Shown here: positions 3,969-51,744 of the stretch, piece after piece | How the letters are laid out: each line of letters starts with the position of its first letter | Numbering within the stretch: position 1 is the stretch's first letter | Origin: a virus | Taxonomy: Duplodnaviria > Heunggongvirae > Uroviricota > Caudoviricetes | DNA: 55,284 nucleotides | Strand: one strand, 5' to 3' | Virus record (IMG/VR): IMGVR_UViG_2648501186_000003 | Span: 1-55,284 of that record | Notes under the pieces: model-generated | What the model saw: the letters and a program-made list of their open reading frames with translations, nothing else | Database searches by the model: none | Told to the model about the DNA's origin: nothing | Translations under genes and position numbers: made by a program

Positions 3969-3985
3969 AAATTAATTAGAGCAAT
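3969..3985 (-). promoter_or_regulatory. C1-operator-like site (16/17 to ATTGCTCTAATAAATTT)
   Basis: aaattaattagagcaat in the divergent ssb/lyz intergenic region; the consensus is from memory of P1 C1 operators. Confidence 0.5.
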
Positions 3986-4118
3986 AATGTATATCTTTGA
4001 AACGTAGCTAACAAGTGATTTGCATTATCCTGTGCCTTCTAAAGGGATCGAGTCAGTCGGTATTGGCTGTGAATGGGTGTTTGTCCTGGAGCGTAAAAAA
4101 TTCGCTTATGAGGTCTTT

Positions 4119-4676
4119 ATGAAGGGAAAAACAGCCGCAGGAGGCGGTGCAATTTGCGCTATCGCGGTGATGATTACCATCGTGATGGGTAATGGCAATG
4201 TGCGAACCAACCAGGCGGGGCTTGAGCTTATCGGAAACGCTGAAGGTTGCCGACGTGACCCATACATGTGCCCGGCGGGTGTATGGACTGACGGGATTGG
4301 TAATACACACGGGGTAACGCCAGGCGTGCGAAAAACCGACCAGCAAATCGCCGCTGATTGGGAAAAGAATATCCTGATCGCTGAACGCTGTATTAACCAG
4401 CACTTCCGGGGCAAAGACATGCCCGATAATTCCTTCAGTGCAATGACAAGCGCGGCATTCAATATGGGATGCAATAACTTACGGACCTACTACAGCAAAG
4501 CGCGAGGCATGCGAGTCGAAACGTCCATCCACAAGTGGGCGCAGAAAGGGGAATGGGTGAATATGTGTAACCATCTCCCTGATTTTGTGAACAGTAACGG
4601 CGTGCCCCTGCGAGGTTTAAAGATTCGCCGTGAAAAAGAACACCAACTTTGCCTGACGGGACTGGTCAATGAATAA
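4119..4676 (+). CDS. lyz: SAR-type endolysin (T4-lysozyme/GH24 family)
   Basis: N-terminal Gly/Ala-rich signal-anchor (AAGGGAICAIAVMITIVMG) followed by a lysozyme catalytic region (ELIGNAEGCRRDPYMCPAGVWTDGIGNTHGV). Start set at the ATG at 4119, giving 185 aa. Confidence 0.8.
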   Translation: MKGKTAAGGGAICAIAVMITIVMGNGNVRTNQAGLELIGNAEGCRRDPYMCPAGVWTDGIGNTHGVTPGVRKTDQQIAADWEKNILIAERCINQHFRGKDMPDNSFSAMTSAAFNMGCNNLRTYYSKARGMRVETSIHKWAQKGEWVNMCNHLPDFVNSNGVPLRGLKIRREKEHQLCLTGLVNE

Positions 4677-4920
4677 ACTCCGGCAGCTCCGCAGACTTTC
4701 GACAATGAAGTTATCGCTGGCAGCGATAGTTTTCGACTCGATTTTCATGGCGGTATATGTGCTTAATGAAACGTGGCCACTGGAACCGCTATTGTATGCT
4801 GGGCTTCGGCTGTGCCTGACATTTTTGAGCATGGCCGCGAGATTGATGCAGCAGAAAGAAACCGCTTCAGATTGTCCACGCCGCGCGGTGCGCAAATATA
4901 TGGCACGCAGACGAAGGTGA
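4669..4920 (+). CDS. Small membrane protein coupled to lyz (possible lysis accessory)
   Basis: ATG overlaps the lyz stop; one hydrophobic helix and a basic C-terminus. Confidence 0.4.
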   Translation: MNKLRQLRRLSTMKLSLAAIVFDSIFMAVYVLNETWPLEPLLYAGLRLCLTFLSMAARLMQQKETASDCPRRAVRKYMARRRR

Positions 4921-4936
4921 TAATAGTTAACGAGAA

Positions 4937-4962
4937 CCCCGGCAGCCGCCGGGGTTATTTTT
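4937..4962 (+). terminator. Rho-independent terminator
   Basis: ccccggc-agcc-gccgggg followed by ttattttt. Confidence 0.6.
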
Positions 4963-4967
4963 GGTGG

Positions 4968-5987
4968 TTATTTGAACGGATTGATTGAATTATTAAACGT
5001 GATGATGCTTGTCTCACGCGGTGCCTGGACGTTAGCCGCTTGCGGAACCTCTTTAATTTTCTTAGTGACAGGCAAGTTGCGCGCGCCAACTTTGATCAGA
5101 GATTCGAAAAGTGTGGCAACGATTTTTGCATCACCAGGTTCTTTGAGGCGGAATGCGTCTTTTTGGGCGGCGGAGACGAAGATCGGGAGGTTATCCAGTT
5201 CGTCTTGCATTGCTGCCAGCACATCGTCGCGGATACCCGCTGTTTCCTCCAGCAAAGCAATTCGCGCTTCAGCATCTGCGATCTTGGCCATTGCTTCGAG
5301 GTGGCGGCCCTGACTTTCGAGTAGTGCGGTCTCCAGTTCTGCCGTACGCTCTGTCGCCTCCACCATCATTTCCAGTTCAGCCATTTTGCCGTAATGGGAT
5401 ATAACGGCCTGCACTGACTCGTCGGAGTACCCATGCGCCGCCAGGGACTCTGCCAGTAAAGATTTAGAATCCGCGCTTTCAAACATTCCGGCGCTGGCAG
5501 GATGATCCAGACTGATATAGTTCGGCGTTGTCACATAATCCACACCATGGAAGCTGGTGGTTACAGCGATTTTCCCGGACTCACGCCCGCCAGTGGCCCA
5601 GCTCCAGCCACCAGCTCGGCTTTCGATCATCGCGGCGACAATTTTACCCGGCTCTGTGTTAAGAATTTCCTGTGTATGGGTAACGATGCCGTTGTCGTCA
5701 ACGGATATAGCTACTGTGCGGCAAGCTGGAACATTGTCGATAACGACCGGGCGACCTTCCACCATGATCACGCTGGTTTCTGGTACTTCCAGTTTGCCGG
5801 TCAGCTGTCGGCGACCGTGACCGTAATAGCCGAAAAGCTCACCAAGGCGTAAACCTTCCTGAGTTTCCTTGCTTTCAAGCATGGTCTTTACCGCGCTTAA
5901 TACATACTGTCGCCCGTTCTGGCGACCTTTTCTAGCATTACTATAGAGACAAAAGCGGTCAGTGACCGTTTTCAAAACATCAGTCAT
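4968..5987 (-). CDS. Head processing protease/scaffold-like protein (P1 Pro position)
   Basis: Start at the ATG at 5987 with a GAGGG Shine-Dalgarno sequence, overlapping the portal stop; coiled-coil C-terminal half; named by synteny. Confidence 0.5.
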
Positions 5988-50680: not shown

Positions 50681-50827
50681 TAGTGCCGGTTACGGTTCCG
50701 GCCAGGCCTCTTCCTCAACGGGGTGTTCTCCATACGGACTACCGTTTATTGGTCGTTCCTGCGGTTTATGTTGTGAAGCCAGATGCTTATCTTCTGGTTG
50801 CTTCAAAGAGCTGCACTTCCTCACAAC

Positions 50828-50901
50828 GGTAAGGGTACTTCGTAGGGATTCGAACCCTCTGCCAAGCTCGGCGATCTCCGACGTCGCAAAATACCCTTAC
50901 C
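50828..50901 (-). ncRNA. tRNA-like element (canonical T-arm GGGTTCGAATCCC inside a 10-bp terminal stem); possible degenerate tRNA or processing hairpin
   Basis: Perfect 10-bp terminal inverted repeat GGTAAGGGTA/TACCCTTACC; no clean D or anticodon arm found by hand. Confidence 0.3.
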
Positions 50902-50909
50902 TGTTGTGT

Positions 50910-50984
50910 TGGTGCGGTTAACGGACTCGAACCGCTGACATCCTGCTTACAAGGCAGGCGCTCTACCAACTGAGCTAAACCGGC
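50910..50984 (-). tRNA. tRNA-Thr (anticodon TGT) with an imperfect acceptor stem
   Basis: D-arm GCTCAGTTGGTAGAGC, anticodon stem-loop CCTGC-CTTGTAA-GCAGG, T-arm GGTTCGAGTCC; the 3' acceptor strand appears one nt short. Confidence 0.65.
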
Positions 50985-50986
50985 AT

Positions 50987-51062
50987 TGGCGATGGTGGAT
51001 GGATTTGAACCATCGACCCGTTGATTAACAGTCAACTGCTCTAACCGCTGAGCTACACCATC
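50987..51062 (-). tRNA. tRNA-Asn (anticodon GTT)
   Basis: Acceptor GATGGTG/CACCATC, anticodon loop CTGTTAA, T-arm GATGGTTCAAATCCATC, CCA encoded; lies 2 nt upstream of tRNA-Thr. Confidence 0.8.
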
Positions 51063-51727
51063 ACTTGCCGGGTACGTCTCCGGCGAGGGCTTCCACCTCC
51101 GTATGCTTTTCGGCGCACCGCGCCCTGGCTGCAATTCGGTAACAGGGGATGCATAACCCTGGCTTCCAGCGTGATTAGCGCTTTCAGCATGACGGGATAT
51201 ACCCGTAAATTCGTGGAACTGTACCCAAAGTGCTGTTAAGCACCGCTGTTACGCTGAAAAGAAGACGCAACAGGAAAGGACGCTGACCAACAGATGGCCC
51301 CTTCTCGTTCATCTGGTTAATCACACCAGCGCCCTTACCTGTTGTGCCTCCCCGTTCCCTAATACACAGACGGGGACACTCTGCGGTCGATTTTTTGACG
51401 GGGGACGACTCATACCCCGTGGCGCCTGGCTTCTTAGGCCGCTACCATCATCAGATCATCGTTTGCATTTACTTTAATGGTCAGTTTCTAAACCGCCGCA
51501 AAGTCGCTAACCATGACGAAAACCCTGAAAAAAACGCCCACCCGAAGATGGGCAAACTGGAAGCTCGTAACGCACTTCGGCGTTGCCACTTAGGCGCATG
51601 GTCAACCTGGCAACTCGGTGGTTTGTCTGGGAGGACTAGGCCCAGCCATGCTTACCGCCGCGCCTATTGCGGCTAACAGCTAAATCGCTCTATAAATCAC
51701 GATTCATTGAGGCGATATTACACTAAT

Positions 51728-51744
51728 AAATATATTAGAGCAAT
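51728..51744 (-). promoter_or_regulatory. C1-operator-like site (16/17), overlapping a second divergent 14/17 site at 51716-51732
   Basis: aaatatattagagcaat, at the 3' end of dmt. Confidence 0.45.

Follow-up and report, generated by a model that had tools for sequence, protein, structure and literature searches.

C1 operators of a P1-like phage-plasmid: the P1 set with predicted additions at two extra immI antirepressor cassettes

As judged from sequence, the operator-like 17-mers dispersed over this DNA are very probably the operators through which a P1-family phage-plasmid is controlled by its C1 repressor, which would account for them as a whole. The finding is mostly the textbook P1 C1 regulon found again with new members, and little is changed by it. 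Among the new members are two operators that head additional immI cassettes; C1 probably controls these antirepressor cassettes rather than the defence cargo of the element.

The element and its repressor

The window, i.e. the whole 55,284-nt stretch analysed (GC content 47.9%), is a P1-like phage-plasmid with the near-identical relatives CP122664 and CP122941, plasmids of pig E. coli. The cognate C1 repressor is encoded on the same element as the predicted operators, and lxc and coi are also present:

21961 to 22812, + strand: c1 repressor gene, product identical to P1 C1.100 at 280 of 283 residues (99%)
15003 to 15251, + strand: lxc (bof), C1 co-repressor gene, an 82-aa ORF collinear with P1 lxc (9750-9998)
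21641 to 21850: coi, inside the immC operator cluster

In P1, the asymmetric 17-bp sites are bound by C1 either one at a time or, at Oban and Oc1, as overlapping pairs. Where an operator overlaps the -35 or -10 element of a sigma-70 promoter, bound C1 blocks that promoter. Lxc aids the binding of C1, and Coi and Ant antagonise C1.

Operator census

The twelve coordinates that an earlier note on this DNA had listed as C1-operator-like are all real 17-mers with one to three mismatches to ATTGCTCTAATAAATTT (3969-, 17555+, 21303-, 21386+, 21850+, 24501-, 27807-, 36099-, 38191+, 38240-, 41864+ and 51728-; the sign gives the strand). Three more sites with at most three mismatches, 7819-, 19265- and 51717+, were absent from that list. 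The resulting 15 matches were set against 100 shuffles that preserve dinucleotides, in which the mean is 0.29 and the maximum 3; none of the shuffles reaches 15.

The GenBank annotation of P1 (AF234172) supplied a curated set of 20 C1 operators, from which a position-weight matrix was made. At a threshold of 14 bits or more this matrix identifies 20 sites in the window; when the window is simulated with a second-order Markov model, the mean is 0.26 and the maximum 2. Sites gained with the matrix are 17477- (Omat), 19742-, 21678+ (Oc1c), 40957+ (Oppp) and the borderline 16359-. Background frequency at this AT content, which the earlier note had named as the outcome that would speak against its reading, is thus far exceeded. 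By blastn mapping and the P1 annotation, 15 of the 20 sites correspond in position to operators annotated in P1 and are their orthologues (Ossb, Omat, Oref, Oc1a/c/d/e, Olpa, OpmgT, OpmgRa/b, Oppp, O26 and Obana/b). Two (7819 and 19742) are also found in P1, where they lack annotation, and two (17555 and 24501) fall outside the stretches collinear with P1.

Sites shared with P1

The orthologous operators front core early, replication, morphogenesis and immunity genes, and inherit the promoters annotated in P1:

3969 to 3985, - strand: Ossb (former Op21), identical to P1 21015-21031; 26.4 bits
17477 to 17493, - strand: Omat (former Op2b), TATGCACTAATAAATAT, upstream of mat; 19.8 bits; P1 2628-2644
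19265 to 19281, - strand: Oref (former Op2a), ATTGCTATAATTAATTG; 19.9 bits
21303 to 21877: immC cluster with Oc1e (21303-), Oc1d (21386+), Oc1c (21678+) and Oc1a (21850+), identical to P1 Op99a-e
21861 to 21877: Oc1b, a weak position overlapping Oc1a
27807 to 27823, - strand: Olpa (former Op94), late-promoter activator control, identical to P1 89904-89920
36099 to 36115, - strand: OpmgT (former Op88), identical to P1 84293-84309
38191, + strand: OpmgRb (former Op86b), fronting core pmgR/pmgS, identical to P1 82201-82217
38240 to 38256, - strand: OpmgRa (former Op86a), fronting core pmgR/pmgS, identical to P1 82152-82168
40957 to 40973, + strand: Oppp (former Op83); 19.6 bits; P1 79435-79451
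41864 to 41880, + strand: O26 (former Op82), identical to P1 78528-78544
51717 to 51744: bivalent Obanab (former Op72a/b), whose two overlapping sites, 51717+ and 51728-, are offset by 11 bp; differs from P1 by one substitution

Three sites stand outside the annotated P1 set and the cassettes:

7819 to 7835, - strand: candidate weak operator inside the darB 5' end; 16.2 bits; identical site at P1 17166-17182
19742 to 19758, - strand: candidate operator between cre and c8, in the orientation of c8; 18.9 bits
16359 to 16375, - strand: borderline site within the SIR2 ORF; 14.1 bits

The P1 counterpart of 19742 (1485-1501) scores 18.4 bits despite two differing positions. The darB site is a candidate and could have arisen by chance.

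P1 carries 22 dispersed operators with the consensus ATTGCTCTAATAAATTT (PMC8546580). Comparison with the operators annotated in AF234172 (Op2a/b, Op21, Op51, Op53, Op55, Op68, Op72ab, Op82, Op83, Op86ab, Op88, Op94 and Op99a-e) reveals the same asymmetric 17-bp consensus, 15 sites at the same positions, a 99%-identical repressor and, at Oban and Oc1, the same bivalent arrangement. The differences are that 17555 and 24501 occupy loci absent from P1, that Oref and OpmgT are present without their P1 target genes, and that the two conserved candidates, in the cre-c8 intergenic region and at the darB 5' end, are absent from the P1 annotation. The reading of the 17-mers as C1 operators is favoured because of the enrichment, the cognate C1 and the coordinate-by-coordinate mapping to annotated P1 operators.

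Additional immI cassettes

The proposal of the earlier note that C1 controls accessory operons would hold for two additional immI antirepressor cassettes, with 17555 and 24501 at their heads; its other examples did not survive. The cassettes comprise the following:

17555 to 19166, + strand: immI cassette 1, replacing ref
17555 to 17571: its operator, Op51-type, 25.6 bits
17635 to 17687: a1/b1 leader
17757 to 17842: C4 RNA
17890 to 18111: icd
18108 to 19166: ant
22845 to 24517, - strand: immI cassette 2, between pacB and c1
24501 to 24517: its operator, 22.0 bits
24426 to 24349: isrK-type leader
24323 to 24236: C4 RNA
about 24181 to 23960: icd
23963 to 22845: ORF6N-ANT antirepressor

The site at 17555, noted earlier as lying next to the first antirepressor copy, is in fact the head of cassette 1 with its C4 RNA, icd and ant, and homology to P1 immI begins at this operator. 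Cassette 1 matches Rfam RF03163 and RF01695, and its Ant carries an ANT domain and is 73% identical to P1 Ant1. Cassette 2 matches RF01394 and RF01695; its Ant, with Pfam ANT and ORF6N domains, is 56% identical to P1 Ant1. The Rfam C4, c4-a1b1 and isrK matches all exceed the gathering score, and the C4 RNAs of the two cassettes reach 75.9 and 70.7 bits in RF01695 (gathering score 45). In each cassette icd and ant are tandem ORFs, Ant is homologous to P1 Ant1, and the C4 loops a' and b' show 7-8 nt of complementarity to the target pairs a1/b1 and a2/b2. Between the cassettes, compensatory changes are seen in the C4 loops and in both target pairs; other C4 types are seen elsewhere.

Both cassettes are complete and follow the order operator/P51a-like promoter, P51b-like promoter, a1/b1, C4, a2/b2, icd and ant. 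When four immI leaders are aligned, the longest invariant block is the operator core, and the upstream DNA has otherwise diverged. The P51a-like hexamers at 17555 and 24501 are weak, were read from the alignment by eye and fall below the threshold of the promoter consensus scan; in cassette 2 this weak, eye-read match is TTGTGT-17-TACATT, overlapping the 3' end of the operator.

The immI-type operon of P1 is C1-controlled through Op51. The immI regions of P1 and P7 (Op51-P51a/P51b-c4-icd-ant1/2) share with the additional cassettes the element order, the overlapping icd and ant ORFs, an Ant that is 56-73% identical to P1 Ant1, and the overlap of the operator 3' end with a -35-like TTG. In contrast to P1 and P7, the additional cassettes are situated in other slots (the ref position and pacB-c1), and neither phage shares the sequences of their C4 loops and targets; cassette 2 differs further in its isrK-type leader and in the ORF6N middle domain of its Ant. 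By analogy with Op51, C1 would repress the operator-proximal promoter of each cassette, while the C4 RNA of the cassette would silence its own ant in the lysogen. Upon loss of C1 activity, all antirepressors would be boosted simultaneously.

Defence cargo and alternative readings

The cargo and the features at its junctions are as follows:

15293 to 16597, - strand: cargo gene with a SIR2_2 domain, occupying the res/mod slot (Pfam PF13289, E 2e-23; PADLOC PDC-S25/ThsA-like)
29858 to 35848, + strand: EcoR124-type (type IC) hsdM, hsdS and hsdR (Pfam and PADLOC), replacing pmgT-humD
36014 to 35928: conserved 28-aa ORF after the OpmgT promoter, followed by hsdR antisense
19192 to 19175, - strand: terminator-like hairpin near Oref

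As regards chance occurrence of an AT-rich word, the low scorers 1605+ (11.6 bits), 16359- (14.1 bits) and possibly 7819- (16.2 bits) fall in the score range where roughly 0.3-2.5 chance matches per window are expected. For the set as a whole, chance can be practically dismissed, as 15 and 20 sites stand against expectations of 0.29 and 0.26 and coincide exactly in position with experimentally defined P1 operators; the shuffles and Markov simulations rule it out. Direct repression by C1 of accessory or defence operons (SIR2, the pap-adjacent module), with the cargo switched together with the lytic programme, is unlikely. In its favour, SIR2, which lacks P1 homology by blastn, lies downstream of and co-directional with mat. 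The 56-nt gap between them contains no terminator-like site, no good SIR2 promoter was found, and Omat lies upstream of mat; read-through into SIR2 from the C1-controlled and late mat promoters may occur. In the 9.1 kb of defence and toxin cargo DNA, for which about 0.04 such matches are expected, the single site is the borderline one in SIR2. Against direct control, 17555, taken earlier to lie in the promoter region of the SIR2 module, is oriented away from SIR2; on the SIR2 side stands the canonical Omat, missing from the earlier list, which fronts the core gene mat with SIR2 behind it. Furthermore, PIN or DUF2971 cargo in the same lxc-mat slot of other P1-like plasmids is convergent with mat, and capture into a mat operon was rejected as a general design on this ground. 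At hsd, Op88 is intact beside the cargo, and the site downstream of the pap-like gene that had been taken for an accessory promoter is this canonical Op88/OpmgT. Its promoter (TTGACC-17-AAAAAT, - strand, by promoter scan) is convergent with hsd and would run antisense to hsdR; hsdMSR lies on the opposite strand, so that Op88 cannot serve as the hsd promoter. No matrix match of 8 bits or more was found inside hsd. The HipA module contains only the background-level match at 1605+, and no site precedes the HipA-like gene. The divergent pair at 38.2 kb, also cited as accessory control, is Op86a/b in front of core genes. An operator-promoter reading in the sense direction into cargo was found neither for hsd, nor for SIR2 (17555), nor for the HipA-like gene. 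Direct control also clashes with the usual expression of prophage defence genes in the lysogen, which C1 repression would prevent. No convincing sign of C1 control is thus seen for the cargo of defence and toxin genes (SIR2, EcoR124-type hsd, YjjJ/HipA kinase), and a place outside lytic repressor control fits expression during lysogeny.

The operators at junctions (Oref, OpmgT and the cassette heads) might instead be passive relics or recombination anchors that mark mosaic boundaries, an account to which we give little credence. Three homology breakpoints do lie no more than 5 nt from an operator (Omat, 17492/17493; cassette 1, 17553; cassette 2, 24522/24523), and the P1 target genes of Oref and OpmgT are lost. 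Nevertheless, most other breakpoints (933, 2495, 15251, 16660, 29757, 49713 and those inside dmt) are off operators, and a boundary at the first functional element of a module is expected regardless. Across diverged families, the cassette operators retain both their distance to icd and their overlap with the -35-like TTG; they are missing where the repressor differs (phage D6). The two observations argue for selection on binding. Oref and OpmgT are best viewed as backbone promoters that would have been orphaned at cargo junctions, both pointing into convergently oriented cargo. At Oref the ref ORF is gone, the P1 homology ends at P1 2069, 8 nt before the ref start, and the promoter faces the 3' end of ant. 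At OpmgT, according to the notes in the P1 GenBank entry, the flanks of the EcoDXXI and R124/3 hsd loci are matched by P1 84263-84482 (the Op88 region) and 87969-88647, and the hsd junctions here are exactly those two stretches. Like the EcoR124/EcoDXXI type IC loci flanked by P1-like DNA, the present locus encodes an HsdR essentially identical to that of EcoR124 (PDB 2w00); it differs in lying within an otherwise complete P1-like backbone, and nothing else is new. No NCBIfam family was found for the 28-aa ORF after Op88.

Cassettes and operators in relatives

The additional antirepressor cassettes are the only non-P1 DNA bearing operators; they are widespread and their C4 specificities have diversified. 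Of the IMG/VR icd loci, 77 extend far enough upstream to be scored, and all 77 carry a site of 15.7-28.2 bits located 333-380 nt upstream of icd, independent of the slot occupied. The complete near-identical plasmid CP122941 contains three cassettes with an operator on each, cassette 2 recurs in RCS47 (92% match), JL22 and 673R5, and additional antirepressor cassettes occur on at least 361 PLSDB plasmids. The C4-icd query gave no match in the Stx-converting lambdoid phages that match part of the region, and phage D6 served as the negative control instead of these. D6 possesses a C4-icd-ant cassette, but its C1 homologue is only 21% identical, and its repressor is of unrelated specificity; no P1-type operator was found at the cassette or elsewhere in the first 46 kb.

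Venturini et al. (2019, PMC6906374) described an ant gene inserted in the pacB-c1 interval of RCS47 and pTZ20_1P, and icd-ant homologues that pSvP1 carries in its res-mod region; these insertions occupy the same two slots with the same genes as here. That paper covers genes only: the word "operator" does not occur in it and C4 specificities are absent. In the literature on multiple immI regions or C4 specificity in P1-like plasmids, only one descriptive mention was found.

We tentatively suggest, at somewhat short of an even chance, that the stacking of two or three immI cassettes, each with its own C4 specificity and an Op51-type operator, forms a combinatorial barcode of immunity and anti-immunity. 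If so, a resident would, with its set of C4 RNAs, keep antirepressors silent in a broader spectrum of superinfecting relatives, while one unmatched Ant would suffice for an incoming phage to inactivate the shared C1. Less likely than the barcode is that the orphaned C1-controlled promoters (Op88 and Oref) fire antisense into hsdR and ant upon induction. The cassettes offer a testable handle on the cross-immunity structure among co-circulating P1-like plasmids, which carry resistance genes. We also note that C4/target specificity, in the barcode reading, arises from varying combinations of a' and b' loop types, with compensatory changes at both target pairs.

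Relation of the element to P1

The window very probably carries the known C1 regulon of P1 in a P1-like plasmid, together with two Op51-type operators predicted for its extra antirepressor cassettes; control of the defence cargo by C1 is not convincing. The sequence establishes which site is which and where each lies, the presence of the cognate repressor gene, how the cassettes are built and conserved, and which way the cargo is oriented.

Megablast places the window (47.9% GC) in the P1 family, and three pig E. coli plasmids (NZ_CP122664, CP122667 and NZ_CP122941) are virtually identical to it. 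The window runs antiparallel to P1 (AF234172); blastn mapping equates P1 25178-1 with window 1-21242, and P1 94798 downward to ~65905 with window 21245 onward, broken up by non-P1 segments. The repressor gene c1 (21961-22812) encodes a product identical to P1 C1 at 280 of 283 positions, and lxc, the co-repressor gene, and coi, encoding a C1 antagonist, are both in place.

Non-P1 segments of the window
934-2494, YjjJ-type HTH-HipA kinase segment
15252-16659, SIR2_2 protein of 434 aa, in place of res/mod
17493-19168, immI-like cassette (cassette 1), in place of ref
22812-24522, second immI-like cassette (cassette 2), between c1 and pacB
29758-35923, hsdM, hsdS and hsdR, in place of pmgT-humD

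The kinase gene itself (967-2331, - strand; NF007297, E 2.5e-159) sits in the isaB/IS1 slot, which in the near-identical CP122941 holds an anti-phage dGTPase instead. HsdR is essentially identical to that of EcoR124. The dmt methyltransferase ORF (51735-54776, - strand) encodes 1013 aa versus 754 aa in P1, with non-P1 sequence inserted in its middle (homology gaps 52848-53031 and 53523-54542).

C1 operators and their identity

All twelve C1-operator-like 17-mers of the earlier note are present, with one to three mismatches to the reference ATTGCTCTAATAAATTT, and three sites absent from that list (7819, 19265 and 51717) also have at most three; these 15 sites compare with 0.29 expected from dinucleotide-preserving shuffles. 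The background-frequency check named in the earlier note was run with a log-odds matrix derived from the 20 protein_bind entries labelled “phage repressor C1” in the P1 record. Sites of ≥14 bits in the window lie far above background, with 20 observed vs 0.26 expected; none of 100 second-order Markov simulations gave more than 2. The P1-conserved sites at 17477, 21678, 40957 and 19742 were gained over the mismatch search, as was a borderline match at 16359. P1 carries 22 dispersed operators, whose consensus is identical to the one used here (PMC8546580).

Sites were assigned to annotated P1 operators by blastn coordinate mapping, and the sequence of most mapped operators is exactly that of P1.

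C1 operators and operator-like sites shared with P1
3969, Ossb/Op21
17477, Omat/Op2b
19265, Oref/Op2a
21303, 21386, 21678 and 21850, Oc1e, Oc1d, Oc1c and Oc1a (Op99)
27807, Olpa/Op94
36099, OpmgT/Op88
38191 and 38240, OpmgRb and OpmgRa (Op86)
40957, Oppp/Op83
41864, O26/Op82
51717 and 51728, Obanb and Obana (Op72)
7819-7835 (P1 17166-17182), without P1 annotation, 16.2 bits, 54-70 nt inside darB
19742-19758 (P1 1485-1501), without P1 annotation, 18.9 bits, cre-c8 intergenic, just upstream of c8 and in c8 orientation

The site at 19742 may be a true operator, since its score stays high despite two substitutions.

Operators beside accessory genes

The proposal that C1 controls accessory operons holds insofar as the two extra antirepressor cassettes carry operators; for the defence cargo no convincing control emerges. 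The site at 17555 lies on the + strand and heads cassette 1; it is not upstream of SIR2, a - strand gene located in the other direction, past the core gene mat. Facing SIR2 is the canonical operator Omat. The site at 36099, listed as downstream of the pap-like gene, is Op88, whose promoter (TTGACC-17-AAAAAT) is on the - strand and leads into a conserved 28-aa ORF and then the hsdR 3' end in antisense; the hsd genes all lie on the + strand. The supposedly accessory pair at 38.2 kb is Op86a/b, before the core genes pmgR/pmgS. No site of ≥8 bits was found in the hsd genes with the P1 matrix, and the sole matrix match of ≥14 bits across 9.1 kb of defence/toxin cargo DNA (16359, 14.1 bits) is inside the SIR2 ORF. 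According to the P1 GenBank record, the Op88 region and the phd-proximal region match DNA that borders the EcoDXXI and R124/3 hsd loci.

SIR2 shares the strand of mat, starts 56 nt past its stop codon and has a good Shine-Dalgarno sequence. Nothing in the gap resembles a terminator hairpin, and its promoter-like hexamers are weak, so read-through from Pmat, which is Omat-controlled, or from LPmat is possible. In other P1-like plasmids the PIN or DUF2971 genes at this slot have the opposite orientation, as do P1 mod/res, so that linkage of the cargo to mat is not a conserved arrangement. We also note that the lxc-mat slot is a cargo hotspot used in either orientation, holding SIR2 (15293-16597, - strand) in the window; in other P1-like plasmids (loci L087, L088) it contains genes for PIN-domain or DUF2971 proteins, together with an MBL-fold hydrolase adjoining mat. 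The N-terminus of the mat frame (16654-17420, - strand) is unlike the P1 annotation, its first ~36 codons being in another frame; the intact ORF begins MDKKICVV..., the same start as the PGAP annotation in relatives, and the P1 extension may be untranslated in this lineage.

The 28-aa hydrophobic ORF behind Op88, MNTAFKIIMTAIYFWLFSITFGGIVAHG, is unannotated (36014-35928, - strand), recurs in P1 at 84392-84478 with one amino-acid change, and has no NCBIfam family match. Stable hairpins lie in its leader (36066-36042) and after it (~35893-35862), and the junction of P1 backbone and hsd directly follows its stop codon. The ref promoters and Oref are kept at 19169-19300, the ref ORF having been swapped for cassette 1, which is oppositely oriented; between the orphaned promoter and the ant 3' end that it faces lies a GC-rich hairpin resembling a terminator (19192-19175, - strand).

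Structure and conservation of the immI-like cassettes

Cassette 2 is headed by the site at 24501. Rfam hits exceeding the gathering score place a C4 antisense RNA in both cassettes and identify the leader of cassette 1 as c4-a1b1 and that of cassette 2 as isrK-type.

C4 antisense RNAs
17757-17842, + strand, cassette 1
24323-24236, - strand, cassette 2

Downstream of each C4 RNA follow an icd-like ORF and an ANT-domain protein, 73% (cassette 1) and 56% (cassette 2) identical to P1 Ant1. An alignment of both with the canonical immI cassettes of P1 and CP122941 shows one element order in all four. In the 100 nt upstream, diverged elsewhere, the longest stretch without variation is the operator core TGCTCTAAT.AA.TTG. 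The TTG at the 3' end of this core overlaps a -35-like hexamer, separated by 17 nt from a -10-like hexamer, where P1 has P51a; a P51b-like promoter comes next.

Among 79 IMG/VR loci encoding close Icd relatives, 77 had enough upstream sequence, and in every one a site scoring 15.7-28.2 bits precedes icd by 333-380 nt, in mat/c8, pacB/c1 and canonical kilA slots alike. Phage D6 served as negative control: its C4-icd-ant cassette is clearly homologous, its C1 homologue only 21% identical, and no P1-type site was found in the 3.4-kb cassette locus, nor any of ≥14 bits in the first 46 kb. Judged from these sequences, the operator thus tracks the repressor type rather than the cassette, as expected under selection for C1 binding. 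In CP122941, a complete relative, each of three cassettes has an operator, and icd/ant of the extra types are carried by at least 361 PLSDB plasmids. An ant insertion between pacB and c1, and homologues of icd-ant in the res-mod region, had been described by Venturini et al. 2019 (PMC6906374), who did not discuss operators.

By analogy with P1 (P1 GenBank notes, PMC8546580 and the immI literature), C1 would occlude the operator-proximal promoter of each cassette, and a constitutive downstream promoter would supply C4, which would block icd/ant expression. Derepression of C1 would then raise transcription of all cassettes.

C4 specificity

The C4 loops covary with both target pairs, and targets match loops in P1, P7 and both window cassettes.

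C4 loops
P1, b' TCACTAAC, a' CTGTCAA
P7, b' TCACAATC, a' CTGCTAA
Window cassette 1, b' TCATGTAC, a' CTGTCAA
Window cassette 2, b' CCTTGGAC, a' AGGCCAA

Compensatory changes of this kind speak for functional and mutually distinct cassettes. It is possible, though we stop a little short of favouring it, that stacked immI cassettes, each linked to C1 and of distinct C4 specificity, give P1-like plasmids a combinatorial system of cross-immunity.

Many compensatory loop and target variants occur across P1-like cassettes (the window, loci L006-L084 and P7, L089). The b-type targets include GTTAGTG, GATTGTG, GTACATG, ACTTACG, ACGAATG, GTCTAAGG, GCAAAAGG and GTCAAAGG, and the a-type targets TTGACAG, TTAGCAG, TTGGCCT, TTGAGAC and TTGGAAC; the two types combine mix-and-match, and cassettes of one genome differ from each other. 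The Ant paralogues of the window (18108-19166, + strand; 22845-23963, - strand) are identical over their first 72 residues, differ by one substitution over the last ~140 and diverge in their central part, which in copy 2 contains an ORF6N domain, a pattern which suggests recombination or gene conversion between cassettes.
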